Source: Schmidtea polychroa
Taxonomy: Eukaryota
Direction: 5' to 3'
Assembly (NCBI GenBank): GCA_044892525.1
Contig: CM097885.1
Coordinates: 10,480,001 to 10,544,000 of the forward strand
DNA: 64,000 nucleotides
Positions 8,471-42,559 of this stretch are shown here, piece by piece. The position numbers were made by a program, and so were the translations under genes. The notes under the pieces are model-generated. The model did not search any database. It saw only the letters and a list, made by a program, of their open reading frames with translations, and was not told the DNA's origin. Numbering within the stretch: the stretch's first letter is position 1; each line of letters starts with the position of its first letter.

Positions 8471-8490
8471 AAATTTTTTTTATAATGATA

Positions 8491-9212: not shown

Positions 9213-9343
9213 TTTTTGTTAAATTTATTTCATTAAATTATCATTTATAGCAAATAATTAATTTTGATTGGATGCATACATGCAAAATTATAAGAAAATT
9301 TTAATAGTTTTATTTTTATCAAATGTTTTAGCCAAATTTTTAA

Positions 9344-12300: not shown

Positions 12301-13468
12301 GAAACCTGCTGGGTCTAAGGTTGAAAAATTATTATTAACTCATCTTCCAAAATCAAATTATGTTATTCATTGGAGATTATTAAAATTATATTTAGAACTT
12401 GGTGTTAAAGTAACACGTGTAAATAGAGGTGTAAGATTTAAGCAATCACCAATTTTTAAAAAATATATAGATACAAATACCGAATTAAGATCAAAAAGCG
12501 TAAATAACTTAGATAAAAATTATTATAAATTGCTAAATAACAGTTTATACGGCAAAACAGTTGAAAATTTAAAGAGAAGAATGAATCTTCGTCTTTGTAC
12601 AACTGCCGGTAAATTAGTTAAATATTCGTCAAAACCGACTTTTAAAAAATCTATTAAAATAGCAGATAATTTAATTGCAACACTATTGAATTCAGATTCT
12701 ATATGTTTAGATAGACCGAGTTACATTGGTCAATCTGTACTTGATCTATCTAAACTTAGAATGTATGAATTACAATATAAGGATCTGGAATCATTTCGCA
12801 ATGAGTTTAATTGTAAAATTAATATCGTTGCTGGTGATACAGATTCTTTTTTCCTCGAAGTCATTAACTGCAAACTTGAGGTTCTTTTACCTGCAATGAT
12901 TCGAGATAATTTATTAGATACTTCCAATTACAATAGTTGTCATTCCTTATATAGTAAGAACCTTGATTCAGTCATTGGAAAGTTCAAAGACGAGAATAAA
13001 GGTCTTAAATATAATGAGTGGGTTTTTCTTAGACCTAAATGTTATAGCTTGTTGGGTGATGAGGAAACAAAAAAGGCTAAAGGTGTAACATTGAAAGGTA
13101 GTGACATAAAACATCAGTCATACCTGGATTGTTATAACACTAACCAGATTTTTTCGGTTCCTCAGACTAAAATAACAAGCAAAAATCATCAAATTTTTAC
13201 AATTAAAAACACAAAAATAGCACTAACAAACAAAGATGACAAAAGGGTTTGGGTGGGGAAAAATGCTAGTCTTGCATATGGGCATGTAAGATTAAGTGAA
13301 TTAAATATTGGAGAAAATGTTGGAGAAATTGTTGCAGAAAATGTTTCAGAAAATGATGGAGAAGATGTTTCAGAAAATGATGGGGAAAATGATGGAGAAG
13401 ATGAGGAAGAATTTAATGAAGAAGATGACATCGATATCGATGACGTTATTTTGTCCGATGAGGACTAA
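9344..13468 (+). CDS. Protein-primed family B DNA polymerase (pPolB)
   Basis: ExoI YADFEA, EndoVII-like RDHDHFTG..GAACSTCN, ExoII HNLKGYD, KGIFPY, motif A DINNLYG, motif B KLLNNSLYGK, motif C DTDS. The frame is uninterrupted. Confidence 0.97.
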   Translation: MYIFLGILYPNYCSSKEHNNCHSIMENYYSKKYYNKTFFICPICKISEPLTYSVFYNKHKQHLDRFNSKKDVIFKRPSTIEINTTNKKIKLNTFVESQVGLVDESNDGLSFVESNDGLSFAESNDGLSFAESNDGLPFVESQVGLVDESYNEFDNLSLDSWDVGEPNNEFDNLSLDSWDVGEPNNEFDNLSLDSWDVGEPYNEFDNLSLDSSTTNVQIGGNVPIVQKDLRGTHQILSLNTSNLNIKEIIFPEQLIIKLRDIINELGSVKIQFGITIEFEKDGEIKVNNISNYAKPLTASFFDEGIRELNEKISNITELGSSWIIKKITEIHFTITKISRLSRLSGKSFIELPTCLKNKYCLINVKNTDDSCFLYSILAILKYDEVSSYARNRTSSYNLSELIYNPLDLPMKLKDIRKFEAKNPGLIINVFSYDNNNQLIDNYVLKHPHLDIIHRSKVLNGTVINLLLLNKGNNFHYIAISNLNRLLNCHINTSCPTRIQSIWCHRCLNGFKNRNALEKHEILCKRNQLGTTLYTFPENKFLQFTDWSKTVTPPFVVYADFEAILPCDNVHFQRHMPISAGLLLVNNFDGSKSYQQFIGLDCVESFLSAIEDIALNKVLPFYYKMGRKPMIKLTKNEQQQFINSTVCYLCLKSIMDPVRDHDHFTGKYLGAACSTCNVNRKINKILPIVFHNLKGYDMHHILKYGLNKFKNWNLGCIPITTEKFISLIAHLGKISIRFIDSYQFVNDSLAKAVKTLNSLPFTNSAFSGTIVSEKGIFPYNFATSLDVLQTTYELPPIWEGVTELEYEKAQEIWVESNCRTLLDYMMIYLKLDCFLLADFFHQFRLKSIAHNRLEPLNYFGIPGMSWSSALMSLNEPIELITENEMFSFYEGGIRGGLTFVNKHYVKTDENTELLYIDINNLYGWALSQSLPCGEFCWVLDGFDKIMDECRNLNLESLSYGYTLEVDLVIPSELHDKLDDFPVAAEKMKPAGSKVEKLLLTHLPKSNYVIHWRLLKLYLELGVKVTRVNRGVRFKQSPIFKKYIDTNTELRSKSVNNLDKNYYKLLNNSLYGKTVENLKRRMNLRLCTTAGKLVKYSSKPTFKKSIKIADNLIATLLNSDSICLDRPSYIGQSVLDLSKLRMYELQYKDLESFRNEFNCKINIVAGDTDSFFLEVINCKLEVLLPAMIRDNLLDTSNYNSCHSLYSKNLDSVIGKFKDENKGLKYNEWVFLRPKCYSLLGDEETKKAKGVTLKGSDIKHQSYLDCYNTNQIFSVPQTKITSKNHQIFTIKNTKIALTNKDDKRVWVGKNASLAYGHVRLSELNIGENVGEIVAENVSENDGEDVSENDGENDGEDEEEFNEEDDIDIDDVILSDED

Positions 13469-13474
13469 TTTTAT

Positions 13475-13554
13475 TGAATAAATTTTATATCTTTACATTT
13501 GTTAATTGTTTGTGTTTTATGTGTCTAGTTCATTTTTATGTATTTGGTCGATAT

Positions 13555-13585
<31 letters not shown>

Positions 13586-15206
13586 TTATTATTTTTATTA
13601 TTATTTCGTTAAAATTTTCATTTGACTTTGAAAAATATTTCATAAAAATTTTCATTAAAAGTTATCTTAAAAATTTCCATCTAAAATTATCATTGAAAAA
13701 TATTTCATAAAAATTTCCATTAAAAATTACTTAAAAAAATATTTCATAAAAATTTCCATTAAAAATTACTTAAAAAAATATTTCATAAAAATTTCCATTA
13801 AAAAATTTCAATTCTCAAACACCTTCAACTTTTTGTTAATAAATTTTAAAATCTTACTTTAATTTACTTATTACATTACTTTAATTTACTTATTTAAAAA
13901 TTATTACTTTAATTTACTTATTTAAAAATTATTACTTATTTAAAATTTTTTACCATTGATTACTTAATTTTAAATTTAGACCATAATTTACTTTAATTTT
14001 AATTTTTAGAACCATTATTTACTTTAATTGAAAAATTTGGACCATTATTTACTTTAATTTAAAAATTTGGACCATAATTTAAAAATTTGGACCATAATTT
14101 ACTTTAATTTAAAAATTTGGACCATTTAATTTTAATTTTTAGAACCATTATTTACTTTAATTGAAAAATTTGGACCATAATTTACTTTAATTTAATTTTT
14201 TAGAACCATTATTTACTTTAATTGAAAAATTTGGACCATAATTTACTTTAATTTAATTTTTTAGAACCATTATTTACTGTAATTTAATTTTTAGGACCTT
14301 AATTTACTTTAATTTAATTTTTAGGACCTTAATTTACTTTAATTGAAAAATTTGAGCCATAATTTACTGTAATTTAATTTTTAGGACCATTATTTACTTT
14401 AATTTAAAAATTTGGACCATTATTTACTTTAATTGAATAATTTACCACGTTTTTTAGTGTAGACCACCTTTTTCTCAGGACCAAGGAGACTCACCTCACT
14501 ATAGTCTGAAAAATCCTTGGCTTTTTTAGTGTAGACCAGCTTTTTGTATTGAAAATATCCTGAGACCTTAAATTACCATGCTTTTTAGTGTAGACCAGCT
14601 TTTTGTATTGAAAATATCCCGAGACCTTAAATTACCACGTTTTTTAGTGTAGAACACCTATTTCTCAGGACCAAGGAGACTCACCTCACTATAGCGTGAT
14701 AAATCCTTGGCTTTTTTATTGATAGTAGGATTTTTGTATAGAAAAAAATTTTTTGTATTGAAAATCCCAGGACCATCGAGACCCCCTCACTATATTCTGA
14801 AAATTCCATGCTTTTTTAGTGAGACCGCCTTTTTGTATTGAAAAAATTTTATTTGTATTGAAAATCCCAGGACCATTGTTTTTGTATAGAAAAATTTTTT
14901 TTTTTGTATTGAAAATCCCAGGACCATCGAGACCCCCTCACTATAGTCTGAAAATTCCATGCTTTTTTAGTGGTAGTCGGATTTTTGTATAGAAAAATTT
15001 TTTTTGTATTGAAAATCCCAGGACCATCGTTTTTGTATAGAAAAAATTTTTTTGTATTGAAAATCCCAGGACCATCGAGACCCCCTCACTATAGTGTGAA
15101 AAATTGCGTAATCAAAAGTTGCAGCAAAAAAATTACGGCAGCAGAACCCCCCCCCCCCCCCCCCCGGGGGGGTCATTGCTGCCGTAGGCTACTATCTACC
15201 TACTAT
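13475..15206. repeat. Right terminal inverted repeat (~1.7 kb) made of nested tandem repeats
   Basis: Inner boundary is defined by the match to 1-109. Contains ~35-bp GGACCAT(A/T)ATTTACTTTAATT repeats (13975-14440), TTGTATTGAAAATCCCAGGACCAT and CCTCACTATAG blocks (14450-15100), and a terminal C/G hairpin. Confidence 0.85.
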
Positions 15207-19588: not shown

Positions 19589-22137
19589 CGCTAATTTCTT
19601 GCGTATAACCCGCACTTTATAAATATCAATAATTTTCATCAAAAGTAAAATTATTCACGTATAACCCACCCTTAAAATAGTCAATATAATTTTTACCTAT
19701 GAATGTACTTATATATGCTATCATACAAATACTATTTATTAATACATGCGTAAACCCATCCATACAATAAACGTGACAACCAACTGAATAAGACCATTTT
19801 TAAACTTGTGACAAACACGTGCCATTGTTTACGAACTTAAATTCAATACAAATATAAATCTTGTTAAATAATAAACAGTGAGTGTGACCGAGCCACCAGT
19901 CACAATGAGTATCAGTGACGATGACCTCCGACAGTTCATACGTGAACCAACTACGCCCGTTGTCAAATTCACAGATACCCATGCCACACGCAGGCTGTGG
20001 AGAGGTGCATCAAGGTGGTGACTGAGGCATCTCAGTCTGTGTGTGGTGAGAAACGACGAGACGGTTTTATCCGTACAAGACTGGAGTCTAGGGCAAAAAT
20101 GCCCGTTTTTGACACAAAACGGGACTTCAATATGTGACAGTCATATCGACTCATTTGAATGTGTGTGTTTTTATTGAGACAATATATGTTAACACTGTGC
20201 CAAAAACTGCCTAAAAATGTTTCTGATAATATAGAAGCAAATTGTATCACTATTTTTCAGTATATTATAATTAAACATTTTCGGTAAAAAATGTCCAAAT
20301 ATTGTCATTTTCATCGCTCGTGGGGGAGCCTAAGATATCAACTTATCAAGTTGAACTTTTAATATCTTTTAGATGACAACACTCCAAGTTTTTTCATTGC
20401 TATTCCAAGTAAAAACTCTCAAAATGATTTTTTTTCTCACTTTTCACTCCACCCTATTACACACATATAGAATGAGACAAATATTAAAAATTAAAAAAAT
20501 TATATTTAATAAAAAAATTCATGAATTACCGCACCCATCGTATATATTTTGTTATTAAATATTGAAATAAATATAAATATTAATATTGCCGCATAAATAC
20601 TAATATGATCCATAATATATTATATAAAAATATAAATACTTATTTTTCATTGGTCAAAATAAAATATTAATTTTTTTATTATTAATATTTCAAAAATTTT
20701 AAGACAATGCAAAGAAGTTAATATTTATTATTACATTGTTAGGGTTGAAAAAATTAATTAAAAATTAATTAATTGAATGGTAAGTATAACAATTTATCAT
20801 TTGGAAAAATCAACTGAAAACATGACAATTAAAACAAATAAATTAGTATCAAATAATTTTAAATTTAAGTGGTCCCTAGACAAGTGGCACGTTTACAGAA
20901 AACGAGATTCTAGTTTCAAACATTATTTGGGATTTTCTAAACATGTAGAATATAAGTCGAAGACTAGTGGGGGACAGCTTATGTGCAAAAGGTTGCCCAA
21001 AAATCCACGAAGATTTAGTACTTAAAATGATGTAATTATCACAATAAAACTTTATATACGTAAACTGCAGCAGATGACTATTTATTAATCTTAACCGTTT
21101 GCGGACGGAATTAATTTTAATAAGTAGTATACGAAATATACGAAATCTTTTAGTATACGAATGCCCGATATCGTGGTATGATTTTTTCAAGTTTGGCCAG
21201 TACAGCTGGCCATTATACATTGTTGAACGTCTGGAACAAAATTCGTGGCCAGCGGTGCTGGCCTACCGTCAGCAACCGTATAAGCATTTTAAGTCCTTTC
21301 ATTAATTCAGAAAGTATTTTATCCGGACTTTGATTTGCTTTTCTTTCATTACTCATTCTTATCAATAAAATTACAGTGGTAACAAAATGAACAAAATAAA
21401 AGAATAATAGTACCTACTGTAGTGGAAAATATTCAAATGATTAACGTTTTATTACATGTAAAATAAAGAAACTATTGCACTACAAAACTATTAATTCGAA
21501 ACTAACACAAGTTAAATGTGTCGAATGCGGAGAAGTGGGAGTGGCACTCGTCTATGTATTTTATTGTGCCACAAAGACCGACAAACTACGGGAATAGCTA
21601 GCGCGAGCATAATTGTGCTGTCTTGGATTTGAAAAGACTTAACTAAAAATATGCATTGTCTTTTTTTTTATTCTCATACAATTTCCATAACAAAACCAAA
21701 ATAAAGGTTTAATTAAAAAATTTCATCCCTAATTTATATTTGATAATCTATAATTCATTTTGGAGGAGAGGTAGGCAAATGCTCCGTATGCTCCCCTCAT
21801 TAGCTATGTCTATGATTGGCTAAATACCAAAAATTTAAATAATTTGTACAACGACACCGACTCATAAAACCCGTTAATTAACGATCCAAATTAGCCGATA
21901 ATCTCCCAACATTGATTCCCGAGCTCTAGAAAGTTCTAATTATTCACCATTTAGCCTTAATTAAATAGACCGTCATTGCACCTGCCACATTAGGGATTAT
22001 AAAAAAATGTTAATTAATTATTAGCCAACTGGAAATTTCTAAAATCATATCGTAAAATAAAACTCAATTTTGATTGGATGATTTTTGCAAAATAGAATTT
22101 AATTTAAAAACTGATATTTTAAAAATTCATTTATATA

Positions 22138-22767
22138 ATGCATGGCAATAATCTGCCCCAAGAACCGCAATTACTGAACAATGTCTGCTGGTTTTGCAAG
22201 AGCTCAGTGAAAACGACTCTGGAGGATTTTCATTCAAATCAAATCCAGGAAGAGGCGATTTTAAATTCTCCGACGTTCAAGAAGTTATTAAAAAATGAAC
22301 TGCTTCATTTCTGTAAGAACACAACAATCCGCGGAGTTCCGAGAATAGTTAACACAACCAACAAATCCAGTAAGATTCTATGGATAGGTTTTTTTATTTT
22401 TCTCTGTGCTGGTTTGACAATCTGTCTGACATTTCTCATCCGACAATTTATTGAATATAGTGTCATTCATCCACCGAGAGTTCTCCAAAACAGTCCATCT
22501 CCATTTCCGTCATTTACTGTCTGCAATCATCGGCCATTGAGTTACAATGTCAGCAGTTTCTTTCATCAAAGAAACATGAGAAATCCTCGAGAATTTGCAA
22601 TAGCGGCCAACTACGTATCGAAAAACTATTTATTTGACCGAGGAGATAAAGGTCACTATAGTTTAATAACTTCAAGCTTTTCTTTAAGCGGTTACTTGGA
22701 AAGCATTCCATTGGAATATCACAAAATGCTTGGACACGACTATTTTGATTTTGTCATTGACTGTTTG
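22138..22767 (+). CDS. Host DEG/ENaC (amiloride-sensitive sodium channel family) gene, first coding exon
   Basis: FCKNTTIRGVPRI pre-TM1 motif, TM1 ILWIGFFIFLCAGL..., and FPSFTVCN. GTAAGT donor at 22768. Later exons were not identified in the window. Confidence 0.85.
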
Positions 22768-22857
22768 GTAAGTAGATTATTATTTATAATTAATTTTAGA
22801 AACAATATTTATAATATCATTAGTTTATTTGAATTTCACCATAACAAATTGTATAAA

Positions 22858-23362
<505 letters not shown>

Positions 23363-24115: not shown

Positions 24116-24379
24116 CCAAATGGCTAACATTAAATAAGAGATTAAACTATCGAAAAATATAAAAAATCTGTAGGCAAGCACGTTTCACAATTTTCAATAA
24201 TAATAAATACACACGAATGGACATTAAATAAGGGTCTTAAAATTAAAAAATTTCCAAATATTTATTCCACAACAGTAGTAGGATGTGGGCCATCCAGATC
24301 AGGAGCTCCCCGCGCCACATATACCCCCTCCCCCCCCCGGGAAAAAAAAAATTTTTTTTTTTAATTTTTTGTTTTAATT

Positions 24380-25430
24380 AATTGGCCTGGCGGGCTCACA
24401 CTTTTTTTCATCCCAAAAATTAATGTTCCCACCAACGGATTTTATTGGACTATACCTCATCTTAAAGCCCAGTCCAAGACCTTTCGAATGAGCTATAGGT
24501 ATCATATATATCTTTAATAGTTTTAATGTTATTAACAATTGATGACCACCATCTTTTCAACGTTAAATTATTATTATTTTCCAAAATATTATTAATTGGC
24601 CTGGCGGGCTCACACTTTTTTTCATCCCAAAAATTAATGTTCCCACCAACGGATTTTATTGGACGATACCTCATCTTAAAGCCCAGTCCAAGACCTTTCG
24701 ATTGATCCATAGAAGGTATCATCATCATTAATATTGACAAAGTTATTAACAATTGATGACCACCATCTTTTCAACGTTAAATTATTATTATTATTCAAAA
24801 TATTATTAATTGGCCGGGCGGGGACATACTTTTTCTCATCCCAAAAATTAATGTTCCCATTATCCGAATTTATTAATCGATAGCTTATTTTGAAGCGTAG
24901 TCTAAGACCTTTCAATTGAGCCATAGAAGGTATCATCATCATTAACATCGGCAAAGTTATTAAAGTTTTACCGAGACCATTTTTCAAGGTCATTTATTTT
25001 TCAAAATATTATTTTCAAGGTCAAGGTCAAATTTTTAATAAAAGGTCAAGGTCATTTATTATTTTCAAGGTCATTTTTTTTTTATAATTATGTGGCCGGG
25101 ATGGCCCCTACTTTTTTTCATCCCAAAAATTAATGTTCCCGCCAACAGATTTTATTAATCAAACACTTATTTTAAAGCCCAATGCAAGACCTTTCGAATG
25201 AGCTAATAAAGGTATCTTCATCATTATTATTGACAAAGTTATTAACATTTTACCAAAAATCATTTTCAAGGTCATATAATTATTAAGTGGTCTGGCGGGC
25301 CCCTACTCTTTTTCATCCCAAAAATTAATGTTCCCATTATCCGAATTTATTGGACGATACCTCATCTTAAAGCTCAGTCCAAGACCTTTCGAATGAGCCA
25401 TAGAAGGTATCATCATCATTAATATTAACA
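24380..25430. repeat. Subterminal ~214-bp degenerate tandem repeat (mirrored at ~37045-38815, 50460-51630, 61535-62780)
   Basis: Recurrent CATCCCAAAAATTAATGTTCCC...AAGACCTTTCGA...GGTATCATCATC units. The right arm of copy A has an extra 707-bp tandem duplication. Confidence 0.9.
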
Positions 25431-25437
25431 AAGAGAA

Positions 25438-25700
25438 TGACTCACCCAATGACTCACCCAACGATGTCTAATATTTTTAGAACGATGACTCATCAAGGTC
25501 ATTCCCAAGGTCATATGACTCATCAAGGTCAAGGTCATTTTTTTTTAATTTAATTTTTTGTTTTAATTAAGTAATCTTTTTATTTTCAAGGTCATTTAAT
25601 TTTCAAGGTCATTTAATTTTCAAGGTCATTTAATTTTTCAAGGTCATTTAATTTTCAAGGTCATTTACTTTTCAAGGTCATTTAATTTTTCAAGGTCATT
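25438..25700. promoter_or_regulatory. Cluster of TGACTCA (AP-1 consensus) and TCAAGGTCA (NR5A/ERR consensus) motifs
   Basis: TGACTCA at 25438, 25450, 25486 and 25516. Seven TCAAGGTCA at 17-18-bp spacing in 25586-25698. Present in all four arms. Function is inferred only. Confidence 0.5.
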
Positions 25701-25741
25701 TATTAAAATAATTATTATTTTCTAAGTTTTTAGTTTCTAAG

Positions 25742-25793
<52 letters not shown>

Positions 25794-25796
25794 TTA

Positions 25797-25844
<48 letters not shown>

Positions 25845-26058
25845 ATATATACTCCTAGTCTATCCGACAAAATATTCTGTCTCCCTATGGGTATTGCTAG
25901 CAAGGGTACTACTCACACTCAACAAGTCACATGGTTATTGTTCACAAAGGTACTGGTAAAAATATTCAAGGTAAAACTTTCTAAATTCTAAATATTATTC
26001 TTTAAATATACGCTCAACTCATATAATTAGTGGTGTGCTCACTACAACATACATTTCA

Positions 26059-26101
<43 letters not shown>

Positions 26102-26104
26102 GTT

Positions 26105-26278
26105 AATGAAAAATCTAAAATATGGTTTACACACACAACCCCTCAACCATTATTATTATTATCAGTATTAAAAACCTAAAATATTTTCTACACACTCACA
26201 CAACCCACTAACAATTATTATTATCAATATTAGTGAAAACCTAAAATATCTTCTACACACATATACAACCCATTAAAC

Positions 26279-26371
<93 letters not shown>

Positions 26372-26652
26372 GCAAATATTAGTCAAAAACATAAAAACAC
26401 ACACTCAACCAATTAACAATTATTATTAACCATTATTATTAGCAATATTAGTGAAAACCTAAAATATTTTCTACACACATATACAACCCATTAAACTTTT
26501 ATTATTAATATTATTATCTATATTATGATTATTATCAATATCAGTCAAAAACTTAAAATATTTTCTACCCACATACAACCCCCATTAAACTTTATTATTA
26601 TTATTAGTGAAAAACCTAAAATATTTTTTACACAACCCATTAACAATTATTA

Positions 26653-26750
<98 letters not shown>

Positions 26751-26905
26751 GAAAAACCTAAAATATTTTTACACATACACACAACCCATTAACAATTATT
26801 ATTATCAATATTAGTGAAAACCTAAAATATTTTCTACACACATACAACCCATTAAACTTTATTATTATTATTATTAGTGAAAACCTAAAATAATTTTTAC
26901 ACACT
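26105..26905. repeat. ~60-bp minisatellite (AAAACCTAAAATATTTT...CACACAACCCATTAAC) mixed with (ATT)n
   Basis: Multiple degenerate copies, with variable copy number in each of the four arms. Confidence 0.85.
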
Positions 26906-29900
26906 AAGTTATGGGGTAGAGAATTATTATATGTTTGCAATATTCTGTGTTTGCCTTTACAGGAAGTTGTCAATAAGGAGCGATAATTTGACACACACAC
27001 ATTCTATATACACATACCTTGTTTAACATGGGTGTATATACTCCTAGTTTATCCGACAAAATATTCTGTCCCCCTAAGGGTACTGCTAGCAAGGGTACTA
27101 CTCACATTCAACATATCGCAAGGGTATATTAATTAGGGTTAGTAAATAAAACTTATGACACATACTATTTAAACGATAAAAATCAAGACAAGAGAGGACA
27201 AGGCAAAGTTTATGCATTTAGTATTGCCAGGCCTAATGAGCAGTGACCAAATATCTGTGCCTGAAAGACACGGTGGATATTTGTTCGCGTCCACAAGGGT
27301 CGTCTGTGCCTCCCCCAAGTGGGGTCAGAAGAACCTGGGCATTATAGCTTTCCGTACGGAACATTACGCCTAGCATGGGTAGTCAACTACCAGCACATTC
27401 GAAACGTATAATTTCAAAATACATGCGTCATTGGCACTATAACCAAATTAATTAATGTTTTCACTAACACAAATATATATTTACAGAGGCCTCCCACTAG
27501 TTGGATTACAACCGCCCACCACGACGATCAGCTTGTAAATATATATTAATTAAGGGATAAAGAGGACCCACCCAACCCTATTATATTTAATTTACAAATT
27601 TTTCTCGCTCTTCTGCTGGTATTCTATCTCAAAATTATCATCTCCATCGGGCCATTTGATAGTGATTTCATGGAATACATCTTGCAAATTGGACATATTT
27701 CTTAGTTTCTGATGCGGTGTCAACTATCATTGCTAAAATTTATATTGATTTAAAAGCAATTAACTTACATTATCTAGCATTTTATCGTCACAGGCTTGAT
27801 AAATTAGGCAACTGTTATTTGTGGTATACTTTTTCAATGTCATTTCCCACCATAAAACACAGATACCTAAATATAATATATATATATTTTAAAGAATTAA
27901 TTCATGTCTTACATTAATAATAATATTCTTCAGGTAGTACTTTACAATATCTAATTGATAAAACATCGGTTTTTTCCCATTTTTCTTGACATTCGTTGAA
28001 AGTTTACATAATTTAAGTAAACATTCATGTTGAAGGACACCCCCAATCAGCTAATTCATTTAAGAAATCCCGAACATAGCAATGTTTCACCATTTTGTCT
28101 GGTTCATTTTCTTCTATAATTCATGTTTTAATAAGAAATTTCTAAATCCAGAACATAAGTCATTTAGTGTTTCACCATTTTGTTCATCTTCTTCATAATT
28201 ATATAATTCATTTTCTTCATTACTAAGTAAAATAATTAAAATATTTTAGTAAATTCTTTATTTACTTACTTTATGGATACTAAAACGAAAGAAATAACGT
28301 TATATCAGAATTATATTTAAATAATTTAAATTTAGTTATTTAAACATATTTAAACAATTTAGTTATTTAAGCATATTTAAACATTAACATTATTATATAG
28401 TATAATTTTATATAATTTTATATAATATTATAATATTATAATATTATGTATTGTAAATTTAATATATCCTTAATTTAATTTTTTAAATTCAAAAATTTAT
28501 AATGAAGATTCTTTGAATTAAAAAATATTCTGTTAGTATTTCCAGGCAGAAAACAACGAATTCAATAATTAAAATCTTAATTTTCATGTTGTTAGGGTTG
28601 TGGCCAGAAGTTAATCGCCATCTAATCGTTTGTTCTCAATTTCGCTCATTTTTGTTCAAAACATTCAGGTGAGTTGTTATCTGGAAAGTTTCTTTGAGCT
28701 CAGTTTTGTTAAAACACTCACGGTATTCTTGAGGGACGTGACACTGGAAATAAATTAACAATGGGTGGTCATACATACATGTTGTTGGTTTGAACTGTTG
28801 ATTTATTTTAGAAATATGTATATTAAAAACATTTAAGGTATCATTCAGTAAAATAATATAGTATTTTTGAGTATTTTTAGTTAATTTATAAATAACAGTA
28901 TTTTGATATATCAATAAAGACCATATACTCCTAGTTTATCCGACAAAATATTCTGTCCCCCTATGGGTATTGCTAGCAAGGGTACTGGTCACACTCAACA
29001 AGTCGCAATATTAATCATTTAGAAATTCTTAGGTAAGATAATCAGAAATTTGTGAATATTTTAAATGTAACTTTACACTTATGTCGAGCGACTAATTTAT
29101 TGTTTAACTTTGTAGTCATTTAAAGCAAAAGGTAATTTATTCATCTAATGTTCGTTACAATAGATAATAATATGAGAAAAACATGGTCATTATTCATTGA
29201 TAATTTTAAATTCTTTATCATTTGGAGTAAATTTGTTTGAGGCAAAAATATTTGAAGGAGTCATAATAGAAATATGGTTATCATTTAACCAAATAAGGTG
29301 CTTATTAGTTAAAAATATATATTTATATAGGGTTACAATTCTTTTCTAATTTAATTAGATGATCATTAGACGTAATATATCTTTGCGAGAAATTTAAGAT
29401 GTTTGAGTAACCAAAACATTGATATTTTGGGTCATCAATTTATGAATAGTGCTTAATTTTCTCATTTTTAGTGATTTAAAATAATATTTAGCAAAGGTAA
29501 TTTGGCAAAATATCACTTATCCATCCGATAACAATATTCCTTCAATAGATATTCAACCGATTTAATTTCTAATTAAAATCATAAAATTCCTTCAATAAAG
29601 ATCAATTTTCTTTAGCCGTTGTCGATTTCCAACTTTTAAGTCAATATTTCTCAAGTTTTGTCACTGATGTCCCCACAATGAATAAAATAACTTCTTAAGT
29701 AAATAATTTAAAGCAATAACCTTTGATATCAATCCCAATTAATTCTAAAGATTTCAAATATTTCATTGTGAAAACCAAGTAAATTGATCATTAACCCTAA
29801 ACGACTTAATAAAACAGTGGATAATTAATAAAAAACTGGTTCTAAAACATAAATCTAAATTACTGTGCAATAACATTCATCACAACCTAATAAACCTCTA

Positions 29901-32900
29901 AAACGATATAATTTCACAGGAACTATTATTAATTCATAGCTAAATACTGACTATTTCCCTTTAAAATTTACCAATAAGAACATTGTCGATTTAAATAGAG
30001 ATTTTAAACATTTCCACCAAATATTTCTATCATTTTAAACACCTTAAAAACATCTATTACCATCTTAACCAACCGACTTTAATATATCAGACCTTTAATA
30101 TATCAATTCTCTTAAAATCCATAGAAAATTCTTCAAAATATGAATTTTATTTATTTGTTACAGACATCCTTCCATTGAAATAATTTAGTATCTAAATTCA
30201 TGTAGTAAGAGCCCACTAAAAGATCAAAATTCACTAAAATCAATATTTTCTACAAATATTTCACCACATTTACCATCAAATACCTAATTAGAGATGAAAT
30301 ATATTGATTGATCATCGATTCAGCCAATTATATAGCAATTATAACGTGATATATCTTTCAAAATCACAAATTTCAGTATATTTTACAATAATTTTCAAGT
30401 AGATTTCAAATATATCATCATGATAAAATTAGCTAGTTTCAACTTTAGATTTTCAATATTTAAAAGTTCATCAATATTCGTAGAAAATATATGAAAATAT
30501 TATTTTGTCAAATTCAATACAGAGTCATCATAAAAATTAAATAATAATCACTTGATTATTGTAAAAACTCTAATTATTAACCTAACTGTCATTAAAAATA
30601 ATTTTTATTTAAAATTAAATTTAAAAACAAGTCAATAAAATGTAGCAAATTATGAAGAAATTAATTAAATTTGTCTTCGAATTAACACTAAAACCTTAAA
30701 TTTTTAAATATTCTTTCAATTATTCACAAAATAAATGTTAGTAAAATCCCGCTAACTCTAAAAATTACCAATGAATTTAATTCCAAATAATAACCAAAAA
30801 TTTTCCTAAATAAAATCATTAAAACACATCAGTACCTTTACGACCAGTACCCTTACGACCAGTACCAATTGTGAACAGTACCCATAGAGGGAGAAAATAT
30901 CTTGTCGGATAAACTCAGAGTATATATAATAAAACGAATTAACAATAACTCCATCAAATTGAATCAGTCAAATTAACACAAATTTTGATAAAAAATCTTA
31001 TTCTAAAATGGTAAGAAGCGTAAAGTCGAAAGATAATTTTAATAACACCGAGATAAATTAACAATATTATTCTCAGGTGGTAAGAATCTTCATTAAAGTT
31101 AGGAAATTATAAGAACTACCAATTGCTATAAAATATTTAAACGAATTTAGTTTTGTTGTTTTATAACTTTCGGTTATATTTGAGTGAGTTTTCGAGTGTA
31201 CCTTTTAACTTTCAGTGCTCATTTTCATTAAAAAGAGTAATGTATCTTAAATTATCTTTTGGAATATTTGTTTTTGAAATATTTAGTGTAAAATAGTAAA
31301 TTTAATAATAAATTGTTAATATTAAAGGACTTAATCAAAATTTAAAATCGGAATTTATCATAATTACTCTGTCAAATACAATTCACGGTTTCTTATGTAA
31401 TAAAATAATCATTTGGGGATTAAATACTTTATTAAATAAAAGTTTATCACATTATTAAAATATTTTAATTCGTTAGTAGCTCATATAATAGAAATAATTT
31501 TATATATCCTCATCACTTATAGCCGCCGACTCTCGATTTCCCAATAATTATTATCATTTATATTCTCCCGGCAAATATTTCTTTTAAAATTGTATTAAAT
31601 ATTTTTTTATTAAAGTGAACGTTTTTTATGAATTTTTATGAAATTTATGAATTTTATGAAATAATTTTAAATAAATACAATTAATATATATCCATGCCAC
31701 TTCTCAGTATATTTTCATTAACCTTCCATAATCCAATAATGAATTATTCTAACACTTATTTTAACCCCTTTGAAGTTTATTATTAATTTATCACAGAATA
31801 ATAAATAATTTCCTAACTTTAATGAAGATTCTTACCACCTGAGAATAATATTGTTAATTTATCTCGGTGTTATTAAAATTATCTTTCGACTTTACGCTTC
31901 TTACCATTTTAGAATAAGATTTTTTATCAAAATTTGTGTTAATTTGACTGATTCAATTTGATGGAGTTATTGTTAATTCGTTTTATTATATATACTCTGA
32001 GTTTATCCGACAAGATATTTTCTCCCTCTATGGGTACTGTTCACAATTGGTACTGGTCGTAAGGGTACTGGTCGTAAAGGTACTGATGTGTTTTAATGAT
32101 TTTATTTAGGAAAATTTTTGGTTATTATTTGGAATTAAATTCATTGGTAATTTTTAGAGTTAGCGGGATTTTACTAACATTTATTTTGTGAATAATTGAA
32201 AGAATATTTAAAAATTTAAGGTTTTAGTGTTAATTCGAAGACAAATTTAATTAATTTCTTGATAATTTGCTACATTTTATTGACTTGTTTTTAAATTTAA
32301 TTTTAAATAAAAATTATTTTTAATGACAGTTAGGTTAATAATTAGAGTTTTTACAATAATCAAGTGATTATTATTTAATTTTTATGATGACTCTGTATTG
32401 AATTTGACAAAATAATATTTTCATATATTTTCTACGAATATTGATGAACTTTTAAATATTGAAAATCTAAAGTTGAAACTAGCTAATTTTATCATGATGA
32501 TATATTTGAAATCTACTTGAAAATTATTGTAAAATATACTGAAATTTGTGATTTTGAAAGATATATCACGTTATAATTGCTATATAATTGGCTGAATCGA
32601 TGATCAATCAATATATTTCATCTCTAATTAGGTATTTGATGGTAAATGTGGTGAAATATTTGTAGAAAATATTGATTTTAGTGAATTTTGATCTTTTAGT
32701 GGGCTCTTACTACATGAATTTAGATACTAAATTATTTCAATGGAAGGATGTCTGTAACAAATAAATAAAATTCATATTTTGAAGAATTTTCTATGGATTT
32801 TAAGAGAATTGATATATTAAAGGTCTGATATATTAAAGTCGGTTGGTTAAGATGGTAATAGATGTTTTTAAGGTGTTTAAAATGATAGAAATATTTGGTG

Positions 32901-35900
32901 GAAATGTTTAAAATCTCTATTTAAATCGACAATGTTCTTATTGGTAAATTTTAAAGGGAAATAGTCAGTATTTAGCTATGAATTAATAATAGTTCCTGTG
33001 AAATTATATCGTTTTAGAGGTTTATTAGGTTGTGATGAATGTTATTGCACAGTAATTTAGATTTATGTTTTAGAACCAGTTTTTTATTAATTATCCACTG
33101 TTTTATTAAGTCGTTTAGGGTTAATGATCAATTTACTTGGTTTTCACAATGAAATATTTGAAATCTTTAGAATTAATTGGGATTGATATCAAAGGTTATT
33201 GCTTTAAATTATTTACTTAAGAAGTTATTTTATTCATTGTGGGGACATCAGTGACAAAACTTGAGAAATATTGACTTAAAAGTTGGAAATCGACAACGGC
33301 TAAAGAAAATTGATCTTTATTGAAGGAATTTTATGATTTTAATTAGAAATTAAATCGGTTGAATATCTATTGAAGGAATATTGTTATCGGATGGATAAGT
33401 GATATTTTGCCAAATTACCTTTGCTAAATATTATAAATAAAATTAAGCACTATTCATAAATTGATGACCCAAAATATCAATGTTTTGGTTACTCAAACAT
33501 CTTAAATTTCTCGCAAAGATATATTACGTCTAATGATCATCTAATTAAATTAGAAAAGAATTGTAACCCTATATAAATATATATTTTTAACTAATAAGCA
33601 CCTTATTTGGTTAAATGATAACCATATTTCTATTATGACTCCTTCAAATATTTTTGCCTCAAACAAATTTACTCCAAATGATAAAGAATTTAAAATTATC
33701 AATGAATAATGACCATGTTTTTCTCATATTATTAACTATTGTAACGAACATTAGATGAATAAATTACCTTTTGCTTTAAATGACTACAAAGTTAAACAAT
33801 AAATTAGTCGCTCGACATAAGTGTAAAGTTACATTTAAAATATTCACAAATTTCTGATTATCTTACCTAAGAATTTCTAAATGATTAATATTGCGACTTG
33901 TTGAGTGTGACCAGTACCCTTGCTAGCAATACCCATAGGGGGACAGAATATTTTGTCGGATAAACTAGGAGTATATGGTCTTTATTGATATATCAAAATA
34001 CTGTTATTTATAAATTAACTAAAAATACTCAAAAATACTATATTATTTTACTGAATGATACCTTAAATGTTTTTAATATACATATTTCTAAAATAAATCA
34101 ACAGTTCAAACCAACAACATGTATGTATGACCACCCATTGTTAATTTATTTCCAGTGTCACGTCCCTCAAGAATACCGTGAGTGTTTTAACAAAACTGAG
34201 CTCAAAGAAACTTTCCAGATAACAACTCACCTGAATGTTTTGAACAAAAATGAGCGAAATTGAGAACAAACGATTAGATGGCGATTAACTTCTGGCCACA
34301 ACCCTAACAACATGAAAATTAAGATTTTAATTATTGAATTCGTTGTTTTCTGCCTGGAAATACTAACAGAATATTTTTTAATTCAAAGAATCTTCATTAT
34401 AAATTTTTGAATTTAAAAAATTAAATTAAGGATATATTAAATTTACAATACATAATATTATAATATTATAATATTATATAAAATTATATAAAATTATACT
34501 ATATAATAATGTTAATGTTTAAATATGCTTAAATAACTAAATTGTTTAAATATGTTTAAATAACTAAATTTAAATTATTTAAATATAATTCTGATATAAC
34601 GTTATTTCTTTCGTTTTAGTATCCATAAAGTAAGTAAATAAAGAATTTACTAAAATATTTTAATTATTTTACTTAGTAATGAAGAAAATGAATTATATAA
34701 TTATGAAGAAGATGAACAAAATGGTGAAACACTAAATGACTTATGTTCTGGATTTAGAAATTTCTTATTAAAACATGAATTATAGAAGAAAATGAACCAG
34801 ACAAAATGGTGAAACATTGCTATGTTCGGGATTTCTTAAATGAATTAGCTGATTGGGGGTGTCCTTCAACATGAATGTTTACTTAAATTATGTAAACTTT
34901 CAACGAATGTCAAGAAAAATGGGAAAAAACCGATGTTTTATCAATTAGATATTGTAAAGTACTACCTGAAGAATATTATTATTAATGTAAGACATGAATT
35001 AATTCTTTAAAATATATATATATTATATTTAGGTATCTGTGTTTTATGGTGGGAAATGACATTGAAAAAGTATACCACAAATAACAGTTGCCTAATTTAT
35101 CAAGCCTGTGACGATAAAATGCTAGATAATGTAAGTTAATTGCTTTTAAATCAATATAAATTTTAGCAATGATAGTTGACACCGCATCAGAAACTAAGAA
35201 ATATGTCCAATTTGCAAGATGTATTCCATGAAATCACTATCAAATGGCCCGATGGAGATGATAATTTTGAGATAGAATACCAGCAGAAGAGCGAGAAAAA
35301 TTTGTAAATTAAATATAATAGGGTTGGGTGGGTCCTCTTTATCCCTTAATTAATATATATTTACAAGCTGATCGTCGTGGTGGGCGGTTGTAATCCAACT
35401 AGTGGGAGGCCTCTGTAAATATATATTTGTGTTAGTGAAAACATTAATTAATTTGGTTATAGTGCCAATGACGCATGTATTTTGAAATTATACGTTTCGA
35501 ATGTGCTGGTAGTTGACTACCCATGCTAGGCGTAATGTTCCGTACGGAAAGCTATAATGCCCAGGTTCTTCTGACCCCACTTGGGGGAGGCACAGACGAC
35601 CCTTGTGGACGCGAACAAATATCCACCGTGTCTTTCAGGCACAGATATTTGGTCACTGCTCATTAGGCCTGGCAATACTAAATGCATAAACTTTGCCTTG
35701 TCCTCTCTTGTCTTGATTTTTATCGTTTAAATAGTATGTGTCATAAGTTTTATTTACTAACCCTAATTAATATACCCTTGCGATATGTTGAATGTGAGTA
35801 GTAGCCTTGCTAGCAGTACCCTTAGGGGGACAGAATATTTTGTCGGATAAACTAGGAGTATATACACCCATGTTAAACAAGGTATGTGTATATAGAATGT

Positions 35901-36346
35901 ATGTATAAAATTATCGCTCCATATTGACAACTTCCTGTAAAGGCAAACACAGAATACTGCAAACATATAATAATTCTCTACCCCATAACTTAGTGTGTAA
36001 AAATATTTTAGGTTTTCACTAATAGTGATAATAATAATTGTTAATGGGTTGTGTGTGTGTGTAAAAAATATTTGAGATTTTCACTAATATTGATAATAAT
36101 AATGGTTTATGAGTGTTTTTATGTTTTTGACTAATATTTGCAATAATAATAATGGTTAATGGGCTGTGTGTGTGTGTGTGTAGAAAATATTTTAGGTTTT
36201 CACTAATATTGATAATAATAATTGTTAGTGGGTTGTGTGAGTGTGTAGAAAATATTTTAGGTTTTTAATACTGATAATAATAATAATGGTTGAGGGGTTG
36301 TGTGTGTAAACCATATTTTAGATTTTTCATTAACAATAATAATAAT

Positions 36347-36395
<49 letters not shown>

Positions 36396-36631
36396 TGAAA
36401 TGTATGTTGTAGTGAGCACACCACTAATTATATGAGTTGAGCGTATATTTAAAGAATAATATTTAGAATTTAGAAAGTTTTACCTTGAATATTTTTACCA
36501 GTACCTTTGTGAACAATAACCATGTGACTTGTTGAGTGTGAGTAGTACCCTTGCTAGCAATACCCATAGGGAGACAGAATATTTTGTCGGATAGACTAGG
36601 AGTATATATATTAATAATAATAATAATAATA

Positions 36632-36679
<48 letters not shown>

Positions 36680-36682
36680 TAA

Positions 36683-36728
<46 letters not shown>

Positions 36729-39700
36729 CTTAGAAACTAAAAACTTAGAAAATAATAATTATTTTAATAAATGACCTTGAAAAATTAAATGACCTTGAAA
36801 AGTAAATGACCTTGAAAATTAAATGACCTTGAAAAATTAAATGACCTTGAAAATTAAATGACCTTGAAAATTAAATGACCTTGAAAATAAAAAGATTACT
36901 TAATTAAAACAAAAAATTAAATTAAAAAAAAAATGACCTTGACCTTGATGAGTCATATGACCTTGGGAATGACCTTGATGAGTCATCGTTCTAAAAATAT
37001 TAGACATCGTTGGGTGAGTCATTGGGTGAGTCATTCTCTTTGTTAATATTAATGATGATGATACCTTCTATGGCTCATTCGAAAGGTCTTGGACTGAGCT
37101 TTAAGATGAGGTATCGTCCAATAAATTCGGATAATGGGAACATTAATTTTTGGGATGAAAAAAAGTAGGGGCCCGCCCGGCCAATTAATAATTATATGAC
37201 CTTGAAAATGATTTTTGGTAAAATGTTAATAACTTTGTCAATAATAATGATGATGATACCTTCTATGAATCAATCGAAAGGTCTTGCATTGGGCTTTAAA
37301 ATGAGCTATCGTTGAATAATTATCGTTGTCGGGAACTCTGTACATTTAAATTTTAAAATATGACCTTGAAAAAATAAATGACCTTGAAAAAATAAATGAC
37401 CTTGAAAAAATAAATGACCTTGAAAAAATAAATGACCTTGAAAAAAATAAATGACCTTGACCTTGACCTTGAAAATAATATTTTGAAAAATAAATGACCT
37501 TGAAAAATGGTCTCGGTAAAACTTTAATAACTTTGCCGATGTTAATGATGATGATACCTTCTATGGCTCAATTGAAAGGTCTTAGACTACGCTTCAAAAT
37601 AAGCTATCGATTAATAAATTCGGATAATGGGAACATTAATTTTTGGGATGAGAAAAAGTATGTCCCCGCCCGGCCAATTAATAATATTTTGAATAATAAT
37701 AATAATTTAACGTTGAAAAGATGGTGGTCATCAATTGTTAATAACTTTGTCAATATTAATGATGATGATACCTTCTATGGATCAATCGAAAGGTCTTGGA
37801 CTGAGCTTTAAGATGAGGTATCGTCCAATAAATTCGGATAATGGGAACATTAATTTTTGGGATGAAAAAAAGTAGGGGCCCGCCCGGCCAATTAATAATT
37901 ATATGACCTTGAAAATGATTTTTGGTAAAATGTTAATAACTTTGTCAATAATAATGATGATGATACCTTCTATGAATCAATCGAAAGGTCTTGCATTGGG
38001 CTTTAAAATGAGCTATCGTTGAATAATTATCGTTGTCGGGAACTCTGTACATTTAAATTTTAAAATATGACCTTGAAAAAATAAATGACCTTGAAAAAAT
38101 AAATGACCTTGAAAAAATAAATGACCTTGAAAAAATAAATGACCTTGAAAAAAATAAATGACCTTGACCTTGACCTTGAAAATAATATTTTGAAAAATAA
38201 ATGACCTTGAAAAATGGTCTCGGTAAAACTTTAATAACTTTGCCGATGTTAATGATGATGATACCTTCTATGGCTCAATTGAAAGGTCTTAGACTACGCT
38301 TCAAAATAAGCTATCGATTAATAAATTCGGATAATGGGAACATTAATTTTTGGGATGAGAAAAAGTATGTCCCCGCCCGGCCAATTAATAATATTTTGAA
38401 TAATAATAATAATTTAACGTTGAAAAGATGGTGGTCATCAATTGTTAATAACTTTGTCAATATTAATGATGATGATACCTTCTATGGATCAATCGAAAGG
38501 TCTTGGACTGAGCTTTAAGATGAGGTATCGTCCAATAAAATCCGTTGGTGGGAACATTAATTTTTGGGATGAAAAAAAGTGTGAGCCCGCCAGGCCAATT
38601 AATAATATTTTGGAAAATAATAATAATTTAACGTTGAAAAGATGGTGGTCATCAATTGTTAATAACATTAAAACTATTAAAGATATATATGATACCTATA
38701 GCTCATTCGAAAGGTCTTGGACTGTGCTTTAAGATGAGGTATCGGTCAATAAAATCTGTAAACGAGAACATTAATTTTTGGGATGAAAAAAAGTGTGAGC
38801 CCGCCAGGCCAATTAATTAAAACAAAAAATTAAAAAAAAAATTTTTTTCCCGGGGGGGGGAGGGGGTATATGTGGCGCGGGGAGCTCCTGGTCTGGGGAG
38901 CTCCAATCATACTACTCACAACTGTTCCATATTAAGAAAAGCATTGAAATGCTTAATTATATATTTTTAATAATATTTTGATTAAAGTAAAATATTTATA
39001 TAGCAAAAATTACTAAACAAAATTAGAAACAATAAAACTAGAAAATAATCCAAATTTTCAATTTTTGACAAGAGTGTTATTTACGTAATTAAATAAAAAA
39101 CTTCTTTATTTTGAATAATTATATCATAAATTCTAAAAAATCTTTTTAAGCAATCTTAACATTAAAAAATGACAATTAATAAAATAACCTTGACATTAGC
39201 ACAATTGACCTGCCCCTAATTTATGTCTTATTAAATACATAAATGATTTGGACTGATTGTAAAAAAGAACCCACAACTTAGACTAATGTTATGAAAATAT
39301 TATTGTTAAACTCTAGTAACCTCAACTCGATGATTATTATATATAATTATTAACACAATTACTGTTTTAAAAGATTTATATGATATAACAATGATGTAAT
39401 AATAATATTTATCTTGTCAAACTTTGAAATTATTCTTAAACGCAAAAACATTTTTTGGTCTCATGAGACTGAAAAACCTTTTGTTTAGCAATATTTTTCA
39501 GCTCCGATTTGTTAATGTTGGTTAGATTTAGAATGCCGGAATTTCAGGATTAAAATATGTACCGGGATCCCGGAATTGGATGTCCTAGAATTTAATAATT
39601 TAGTTATTTATATTTAACTTTCTTATGTATTTTTAATAGTCTTACTCAATTAAAATACATAATAAATATTATATAAAGTATTTGTTAATGGAAGTGTGCA

Positions 39701-42559
39701 CAGATTAATTAAATATAAAAATTAAAATTAATTAAACAATAAATATAATACAAATTAAAAATATATAAATTTTCCACCATCAAGAAATTCATTTTCATAA
39801 TATTTCACATACAATAATGTCAATAAATGTTGATAAACCATGAATCACATAAATCTGATAAATGTCATATTAATAATTATGAATTGATAAACGTTATATT
39901 ATTTATCTGATCATATTTTGTTCAATTATACATTTTATTGCATTAATGATATTTATTAAAAATTATCATATTTTTCACATTTAAAAAAAAATTAAAAAAA
40001 AATTACATTGAGTTAAAATTCTTTGTTTAATTATTTTTTCCCCAACTTTTTGAAATAGAAAAAAAATTCCCCGGAATATATAAATTGAGAAAATATATAT
40101 TTTAAAAATTAAAACACTTGATAATTGATTGCGTTTAGATTTCTAATTTCCCTCAATTATCTGAATTTGGCTTTTCTTAAAGAAACCAAAATTCGTAAAA
40201 AATACTGTAATTTTATTTATATTTATTAAATATTCTCCTAATTTGACTGTGACAGAAAAATAAAAGAGCTACTTAAAAAACTTTTGTCAAAATTATCATA
40301 TATATAAGTTACAGCAAATATTGTACTTTTCACAATTCCAACACCTTATCCAACCTTCATCTTATTCAAAAATAAGTTATAAATTATAATTTCATTTATC
40401 AATTGCTCTTTACAATTCTTCAAGAGTTATCTGAGACTTTAAAGATGTATTTTCGGAATCTAAAGAAAGATTCACCAATTTACATATTTGTTCAGATTGA
40501 GTGTTGGTAACAAATTTACAACTTTATTTTGCACAATTAATTTACGTGTCTTGAATATTTTGATCTGTCGAGGTTTTCATCATTCAAATTATCATTTTAA
40601 ATTTCTTATGTCGTTTCAAAAGTACGTCATATTCACGCGTCATCTTTTGTGGTTAAATAGAAAATACAGCAACGCACAAAAAGATTGTGAAGGATGAGGA
40701 CCGGGCCGGATTTAATTTCCCTTTGTCCCATGGTTTTGATCTCATGTCACTAATAAAATGTCACTAAAAGGCATACATTTATATGGTTATACATTTATTT
40801 GCACGGACTAATAACATCTATAATATACAAAAAATCAATTGTTATATTATGGAAACACGCAAACTTACCTGTGTATTGAATTTTGATTTTTCACTATTAA
40901 TAACATTTCACTATAAAATTTGAGAAAGTGGTAGAAAACAAATTTAACACACAAACACAAAACATAATAAATAATGCATGTGAATCTTCTATATGTAGAA
41001 TTATTTCATGAAATAATTCCATTTTAAATTATTATTGAAATTATTTCGTCAAAAATGGCGGAAAAATCTTTTTTTTGAAAATTCAAACAACTTTACTTTG
41101 AGTTGTTGAGAAAAACAAATTTTGTAAGATTTATTTATTAGTTTTAATAAATTTAATAATAATAAAAAAAAATTCAGATATTTCTGAAATTTCGTTGAAA
41201 ACTTTCCCTTTATGCGAAGATAACACGATGATTACATAAGAATTATTCTTTAAATACTTCTGAATAATACAGTCAGGAGTTTCTACAGTTGCAACAACCT
41301 TTGGGAAAAAACTTGTGAATCGTAAGTTGTTTTTAAAATTAAGTAGAAGAGCTAATAGGATTTTCCAATTTGAGAGAATCATCAATCCCATATAAAGTGG
41401 TGAAGATTATTATGATTTTTAATGTGTTAAAAAAATATAGAATTTTTTTGAGATTATTTTTGTTTTTAATAAATTATAATGTAAATACATCTAACTTACT
41501 TTAATTCGAAATAAATTCCAAATTATATTGCATAAATTCAAAAATATCTGAAAAAAGTAATTAAAAATAAATTAAAACAAAAAGTAATATAAAAGTGATA
41601 TTTAAGAGTTTTACCTCATATCTTTATAAAATCAAAATTCTTAAAATATTCTTTTTTTCTCTTAGTTGGCGACTGTAGTAGAATGCCACATTTTATCATT
41701 TTTATGAGTCAAAACTGTTCCTAAATTAGGTTTTGTTTTTATTCCCATTTCTGTGTCCCAACGGCATGAAACGAAATGTTTTAAAAAACTATATAAAAAC
41801 TATAACGAAAACTAATAAAAAAATCAGCAAATCAATATACGAATTAATAACTACAAATCCTGATACTCAACCAGAACAATATTCTACAAATTAATAACAT
41901 TTAAAGATACAAATCCTGATATTCAACCGAACAATATTCTACAGATTAATAACTCTCAATATAACAATATTATTATAACAAACAAATCAATAATCTTACA
42001 TTATAGAAACATACATACTTACTTTGATTTCACGTTGATGTTCTCATTTATAGCTCAGTGAGATACATCTTATACTATAGAAATTTGAAAAGTGGAAGAA
42101 AAATTAGAAACTGCACACAAGCGCAACACATACTAAAAACCACATACAAACCTTTGTTAATTATAATTAAAAATATATCTGACTCACATTTTTTCGAAAT
42201 AATTCCAAAATGCTCAAAAATAAATGTCATAAAATTCCTAAAAATCCCTGAAAATTAATTAAAAATAATTTATAATTATACTATTGACTAAAAGTAAAAT
42301 TTAAGAACTTGAATAATGATCTCATATCTATATGGATCAAAATTCAAGCCTTAAAATTTACTTAAAATTAAATATCTTACCTGAAAGCCATTTCTAAAAT
42401 GGCTAAAATAAATTTAGAAAAATACATTCATGATGAGAAATTGATAAATAAATTAGTAATTTTATCATTGTAATTGGTGAGTGAATAACTTTACACATTA
42501 ACCACCACTATAGAGAATGTATTTCAGTGATGTTTGATGTTTGTAATAAATCACAAGAT

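Follow-up and report, generated by a model that had tools for sequence, protein, structure and literature searches.

A block of about 400 bases, repeated in each arm of two gene-less palindromic elements in the window (the whole stretch of 64,000 nucleotides of Schmidtea polychroa DNA that was analysed), joins a foldable island to an Alu 5' domain of the 7SL (SRP) RNA type. The context of this unit, its copy number, the joint occurrence of its two halves, its conservation, its retained Alu fold and its dispensability are established directly. We put at about even the chances that the island and the 7SL Alu head form one functional satellite RNA, presumably a discrete transcript, which would bind SRP9/14 and aid amplification. 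The module would be an amplification enhancer; it is not a requirement. The original prediction had placed the island at 27220-27445 and read it as an element-borne noncoding RNA (VA-RNA-like or a ribozyme) or as a signal for replication or packaging of single-stranded DNA. The island is real, but conservation extends over a larger block (27178-27600), in which there is also an SRP Alu-domain match that was absent from that claim. An element-borne noncoding RNA is still the best reading, on the minus strand and with the island as half of a larger 7SL-headed unit.

The two carriers are a 14.6-kb palindrome at 24274-38916 (element 1), flanked by the 6-bp target duplication CACAAC, and a 12.5-kb palindrome at 50344-62887 (element 2), flanked by CGTTTC; both have AGTAGT termini. 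Termini of the AGT type and 6-bp target duplications are end marks of Maverick/Polinton elements (PMC8097293). Both window elements have the (AG)n/(AGT)n termini of that group, in the form (AGT)2, and 6-bp duplications flank them as they do 20 of the 21 terminus pairs examined on contig C1. The satellite arms are 6-7 kb long, compared with repeats of 46-1,447 bp described for vertebrate Mavericks (PMC8097293). None of the Maverick core genes (pPolB, integrase, ATPase, protease, capsids) was found in the arms, where the longest stop-to-stop frame is 105 aa, and comparison of the arms with 437 ORFs of Maverick-bearing loci gave no protein likeness beyond a common 100-bp module. Maverick ends without core genes make the carrier a non-autonomous satellite, and in this it differs from a Maverick/Polinton proper. 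Coding Mavericks with the same ends exist in this genome, and the terminal repeats are common to satellites and helpers. Five Maverick regions that carry genes, from this family and others, gave no match to the island, and an Rfam scan of six loci gave only two SRP matches, both in adjoining satellite arms. The common module, about 100 bp at 27037-27130, lies just downstream of the unit and is repeated at about 25848, at 28924 and, reversed, at 30870-30948; it is also found inside both helper ends, past the helper's last genes.

Several other features of the window and its relatives were observed. A coding Maverick at 100-13600, bracketed by a 107-bp inverted repeat (3-109 and 13475-13581), has Pfam matches to TBP-like, A32-type ATPase, protein X-like, integrase and protease domains, together with capsid-like ORFs and a polymerase ORF of 1,374 aa. 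Four duplication-flanked chimeras on contig C1 (15.24, 118.3, 226.4 and 243.7 Mb) consist of the capsid/integrase half of a helper and a satellite arm that replaces the polymerase, the helper genes being joined to the island arm at differing junctions. Elements with the same termini but inverted flanks and no target duplication (C1 0.19-0.21, 12.8 and 235.39 Mb; C3 32.54 Mb) sit centrally in larger inverted duplications of neighbouring DNA. A sister family (L057, L062, L063, L081) is 67-81% identical to the inner arm at 29500-31900 and has no island match nearby. An amiloride-sensitive sodium channel gene of the host (PF00858) has an exon at 22123-22860, 1.4 kb from element 1. At 42298-42358 there is a precursor resembling mir-753 (61.4 bits against a cut-off of 62), which we take to be a flatworm family. 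ARAGORN found no tRNA in the window.

The island is the 3' part of the block at 27178-27600, which is best read on the minus strand, pointing outward. In that order come the Alu head (27532-27488), a linker, the island and a T5 run; head and island are on the same strand and about 110 bases apart. The Alu head (27488-27532, minus) has helices 2-4, the U-turn motif UGUAA and the loop-loop pairing of the 7SL/SRP Alu 5' domain. In the minimum-energy fold it is closed by an AU-rich helix of about 14 bp, in which 27550-27535 pairs with 27484-27469. All motifs that the original prediction named in the island are present where it placed them. Its stem of 12 pairs in 14 between 27225-27238 and 27362-27375 stands on the plus strand, but the minus strand does better with 13 of 14, a C-A mismatch becoming U-G. 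This 13-pair terminal stem closes an island core at 27225-27375 (minus) that is supported by sequence, folds, pair probabilities and low substitution. Within it are a short hairpin (27361-27350), a central domain at about 27342-27285 and a long hairpin (27283-27248), all on the minus strand. The long hairpin had been drawn at 27245-27286; it is present with a narrower paired base, 27248-27255 with 27276-27283. The hairpins at 27350-27361 and 27378-27391 are exact as described. The latter, of 5 bp, immediately precedes the terminal stem in minus-strand order; its pair probability is 0.98, and three of its five pairs are invariant among 57 distinct copies. The T5 run at 27178-27182 (minus) marks the end of conservation and is a candidate Pol III terminator; a T4 run comes earlier on the minus strand, at 27419-27416. 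A discrete outward transcript would end near 27182-27178.

The claim that the island is nearly invariant in all four arms holds. The 500 bases at 27101-27600 recur at 35798-35299 (100% identity), 52920-53411 (98.8%) and 59829-59340 (98.6%), and the arms around them have diverged, those of elements 1 and 2 being about 86% alike. The copies of the unit are at 35299-35721 on the plus strand in the right arm of element 1 (100%; Rfam match 35367-35465), at 52989-53411 on the minus strand in the left arm of element 2 (98.8%; Rfam match 53245-53343) and at 59340-59760 on the plus strand in its right arm (98.6%; Rfam match 59408-59506). Since the minus-type reading points outward in both arms, discrete transcripts of the two arms would not overlap.

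Folding energy, which the original prediction had proposed as a check, goes only modestly beyond that of shuffled sequences. For 27220-27445, z was -0.93 on the plus strand (37 of 200 shuffles fold as well) and -2.18 on the minus strand (6 of 200); for the hand-picked 27225-27375, the values were -2.07 and -2.76. When minus-strand windows were slid along the rest of the arm, 3 of 55 had z of -2.7 or lower. With modest z values and comparable windows elsewhere in the arm, folding energy alone is weak evidence. The proposed covariation check on island copies within the genome gave no significant covariation. Among 57 distinct copies (out of 138 matches), RNAalifold found none of 44 pairs with a double change; in the five firm helices 2 of 36 pairs had one, a count reached in 28 of 500 shuffles. 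Variants that break pairs are common, in 11 of the 57 copies for the terminal stem and in 6 for the short hairpin. Single changes that give G-U pairs number five on the minus strand and two on the plus strand, the two plus-type changes being present in 11 and 6 copies, and both wobble pairs of the firm helices favour the minus strand. Pair probabilities give no single well-supported fold for the central domain. As modelled, the island fold is neither proven nor refuted, the copies being too alike for a strong test. The plus strand, considered as the functional one for its VA-like order, is less supported by folding z values, by the 7SL alignment and by the wobble pairs.

On the minus strand there was no Pol III A or B box within one mismatch; the plus strand has three B-like 9-mers and no A box. 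No likeness to the spacer upstream of host 7SL genes was found, and the word of the helper late promoter is absent from the arms. A scan for bacterial promoters and terminators, unsuited to animal DNA, was at chance level.

The original prediction recognised no known RNA family, and for the island itself this is borne out: Rfam gives only the adjoining Alu head and one weak snoRNA match. The SRP model (RF00017) matches 27532-27434 on the minus strand with E 1.7e-5 and 29.6 bits, below the gathering score of 70. Over the first 45 bases, 35 agree with host 7SL RNA. Helix 3 has three double-sided changes relative to the host, with all pairs kept and three G-U pairs; as many double changes were seen in 5 of 500 shuffles, the five distinct rows amounting in effect to one contrast of host and element. 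These compensatory, G-U-rich changes argue, at the level of sequence, for a function as RNA, although the covariation is a single contrast and could have arisen before capture. The three-way junction of the Alu domain arises unprompted in the minimum-energy fold, and its predicted closure by the upstream strand is a circularly permuted arrangement. In the AU-rich closing helix, four distinct A>G variants keep minus-strand pairing and three transversion variants break pairs. Only 15 matches in the genome differ at the loop base G14, nine of them in one local cluster in which the island is damaged too. This cluster (contig C1, 0.4-1.3 Mb; L088, L092-L096, L099, L100 and L103) has the change G14A; six of its copies lack 17 bases of the central domain, and three are truncated in the linker or island. 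These lesions indicate that head and island decayed together. On contig C2 (31.93-31.98 Mb; L032-L045) the host 7SL genes are arrayed in tandem, with a period of 593 bp.

Is the island also derived from 7SL RNA? The 310 bases that follow the head align collinearly but weakly with host 7SL 46-297. Under three scorings, global p was 0.012, 0.001 and 0.008 with dinucleotide shuffles as the reference, and 0.052, 0.022 and 0.030 when blocks were shuffled; local p was 0.006-0.12, and the plus-strand control gave 0.22-0.59. When 118 GC-richer segments of the window are ordered by 7SL likeness, the island copies come first to third, by a small margin; p values of 0.01-0.03 were also obtained for some spacer controls. 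With a covariance model of the host S domain, the island edge scored 3.8 bits (E 8.9), amid 35 matches at chance level. Going by these alignments, descent of the island from a whole captured 7SL gene is no more than plausible and would need a rebuilt S domain.

The unit is abundant. In the 781-Mb genome, a 20-mer of the island matches 2,042 times and one of the Alu head 2,348 times, host 7SL genes included; of the first 100 island matches listed, 66 belong to pairs that face inward, with a median spacing of 7.9 kb. The cleanest sample consists of 21 terminus pairs on contig C1. They were chosen by their ends only, by visual selection among the first 100 of 277 end-pattern matches, and all but one have target duplications. 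In this sample, 15 of 17 duplication-flanked elements without a polymerase carry island and head in equal numbers and in the same orientation (two of the 15 with four copies), and three polymerase-bearing helpers and two satellites have neither. Relative to the window copy, substitutions in the island (27200-27400) are 1.8% at GC sites and 0.37% at AT sites, and those in linker plus head 0.9% and 0.4%, compared with 6.2-10.3% and 3.2-4.2% in six of seven other blocks. The seventh, 28500-28800, is intermediate (3.6% and 2.0%). Indels are 10- to 25-fold fewer in the unit than in five of the other blocks. An older lineage is 76% identical overall and 89-91% in the island bins. A separate sample of 30 loci is pseudo-replicated, nine being from one local cluster, and the terminus-picked sample is the cleaner of the two. 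At least two deletions of the unit have occurred, one of which removed it from both arms of an element with flanking duplications, so that it is not required for transposition. The block at 28500-28800 is a second conserved stretch with few indels; it is duplicated with the island in the four-copy elements, is deleted in an older lineage and overlaps a 99-aa stop-to-stop frame without a Pfam match. The substitutions in the arm show no three-base periodicity. There was no excess of solo island copies over head copies, all 30 loci had arm sequence on at least one side, and neither a target duplication nor poly(A) was found around the unit. Pattern scans of metagenome contigs and of viral contigs gave 0 matches each.

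Sequencing runs, all in the form of contigs, were compared with the unit; that run X3 derives from RNA is a guess. Over 27180-27560, 53 of 74 changed places in X3 are A>G or T>C, compared with 2 of 18 in X4 and 17 of 139 among genomic variants. One X3 contig has clustered T>C changes in 27180-27640 that are missing from three other runs. The X3 changes, judged against genomic variants rather than DNA of the same animal, suggest ADAR hyper-editing of long dsRNA and hence transcription of the arms. As they affect loop positions and places beyond the island too, and occur in either sense, they indicate long dsRNA and not the island fold, and they suggest arm transcription, not a discrete RNA. Planarians have ADAR- and RLR-based control of dsRNA (PMC8797187). 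Contigs of X1 and X2, which are from one sample, span 27166 or 27205 to 27742 and not the next flanks, a pattern confounded with conservation and therefore given no weight. In X5, from organism B, depth is about 54,000-63,000 over 27284-27309, contributed by short diverged contigs, and about 315 elsewhere, a flat level that may stem from cross-contamination by organism A, which belongs to the same study. The diverged homologue has about 200-fold greater depth, and its alignment is confined to the island core; no matching deep signal was found over the Alu head. One X5 contig has, by eye, a different hairpin in place of 27350-27361. A search of this genome for the homologue of organism B by exclusion patterns returned only main-family variants and one chance match; 14 of the matches so obtained joined later alignments as near-identical copies.

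The explanation that we favour, at the even chances given above, would work as follows. One outward RNA of 350-420 nt would carry head and island; the Alu head would bind host SRP9/14, and the island domain would probably be a second protein-binding platform, the whole favouring amplification of the satellite. The unit may descend from a captured and remodelled 7SL gene. More speculatively, the SRP9/14-bound RNA would dock on ribosomes like Alu RNA and, where a helper is active, the docked RNP would capture or compete for new helper proteins (polymerase, integrase, capsid). The full form of this account, in which a whole 7SL gene was captured, its Alu head circularly permuted and its S domain rebuilt, and in which SRP9/14-mediated ribosome docking takes helper proteins as Alu does with LINE-1, is drawn by analogy and we think it rather unlikely. 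For Alu RNA, a 46-nt 5' domain is described as associating with SRP9/14, with an association with ribosomes proposed, and Alu embedded in Pol II transcripts is reported to work as well (10.1101/2024.12.16.628748). Alu RNPs are described as affecting translation initiation (PMC11581171), and bacterial satellites as competing for helper proteins by other means (PMC6431247). The weak point is that an RNA acting in trans should leave room for cheaters among 1,000 elements; a benefit in cis is the main gap in the account. A search for the SRP14 family gave no match but lacked a responding control and is uninformative.

The block might instead act as DNA: a cluster of protein sites, an internal promoter, open chromatin or a single-stranded fold could raise excision, replication or packaging, with the Alu head kept as promoter sequence. 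We hold this to be improbable but worth serious attention. Selection in cis would fit conservation copy by copy and presence in 15 of 17 satellites; the core best common to organism B is the central sequence and not the long stems, and stem-breaking variants are tolerated. However, helpers with the same ends lack the block, as does one duplication-flanked element in both its arms, and the changes in the Alu helix are compensatory and G-U rich; in a displaced strand, moreover, the two arms would presumably pair with each other and melt local hairpins. For the essential replication or packaging signal of the original prediction, the island-free helpers and the 2 of 17 duplication-flanked satellites without the island make that role unlikely. 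It is somewhat more doubtful that the unit is a passenger, a captured 7SL or SINE relic that seems conserved through a recent sweep by template switching and arm-to-arm conversion, helped by a lower mutation rate of GC-richer unique sequence than of repeat-rich flanks. That would suit a young mosaic family, of which the four helper/island-arm chimeras with their differing junctions are examples, as well as the deletions of the unit and the fair conservation of 28500-28800. Against it, the rate is lower at GC and AT sites separately, in the older lineage and apparently across species, and the unit has neither an excess of solo copies nor a target duplication or poly(A) of its own.

The VA-like idea of the original prediction survives as a loose resemblance of architecture. 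An abundant small RNA could be a decoy that saturates Dicer, ADAR or RIG-I-like sensors of palindrome dsRNA, and the 151-nt arrangement of terminal stem, long hairpin and central domain resembles the VA layout as described in PMC6599070. The hyper-edited contigs would fit dsRNA from the elements, and planarian control of dsRNA through ADAR and RLR (PMC8797187) would provide the targets. We regard this as quite improbable: the GGGU/ACCC tetrastem arrangement is missing, as are A and B boxes on the likely strand; a decoy would leave the Alu head unexplained; and the helpers, with the most to gain, lack the unit. Least probable of all, to the point that we give it very little weight, is a self-cleaving ribozyme or a miniature rolling-circle element of the Helitron2/Helentron type inserted in the arm. 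With its imperfect inverted repeat of 14 bp and the small hairpin behind it, the island recalls Helitron2 ends, but island copies are not in excess of Alu-head copies, which gives no sign of copies independent of the carrier. Rfam returned no ribozyme match up to E 10, neither strand has an HDV-like descriptor match or a hammerhead core, and the catalytic core motifs and topology of small self-cleaving ribozymes (hammerhead, HDV-like, twister) were not found.

By the tests run, the unit is not SRP RNA, a SINE, VA RNA or a known ribozyme; if functional, it is most like a 7SL-derived RNA. With metazoan SRP (7SL) RNA (RF00017) it has in common the 45-nt Alu 5' domain with its helices, UGUNR U-turn motif and loop-loop pairs. 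However, 7SL RNA forms helix 5 with its own 3' end, whereas here the head is internal and closed by the upstream strand; the S domain (helices 6 and 8) is not kept, Rfam aligning the head only; and the unit scores far below the family cut-off and sits in a mobile DNA element. The 7SL-derived SINE RNAs (Alu, B1, BC200) are alike in combining a minimal Alu head with an unrelated or remodelled 3' domain, and use of SRP9/14 is described for Alu and BC200 (PMC11581171, 10.1101/2024.12.16.628748). Unlike SINEs, the unit is without poly(A), its own target duplication or an excess of solo copies, and it spreads as DNA inside Maverick-type ends, its RNA being no transposition intermediate. Adenovirus VA RNA is likewise a structured RNA of about 150 nt with a terminal stem, a long hairpin and a central domain, and the carrier here is related to adenoviruses (PMC6599070, PMC6431247). 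Neither strand, however, holds both tetramers of the VA tetrastem (GGGU/ACCC, as defined in PMC6599070) inside the island, and the unit has no A or B box on the likely strand, is absent from helpers and is fused to an Alu head.

The titles and abstract openings returned by the literature searches mention no noncoding RNA of Mavericks/Polintons or of their gene-less derivatives, although repeat catalogues, in Repbase or in the supplements of genome papers, could already list the family. What is new is the island as a co-conserved 3' partner of the head, the distribution over satellites versus helpers, the possible origin from a whole 7SL gene and the signals of editing and of a cross-species homologue. 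The hyper-edited contigs suggest that the host ADAR system receives a large endogenous supply of dsRNA from the palindromes. Most satellites carry the conserved 7SL-headed module, which numbers about 2,000 copies, and helpers lack it; the module offers a handle on how gene-less parasites compete for helper proteins. It raises a question that can be tested, namely whether a DNA element in an invertebrate has arrived anew at the hijacking of SRP9/14 for which Alu retroposons are known. If the ribosome-docking reading is true, the unit would be a noncoding RNA of the Polinton system of a kind that the literature searches did not return, and a parallel, in a DNA element, to the strategy of Alu.
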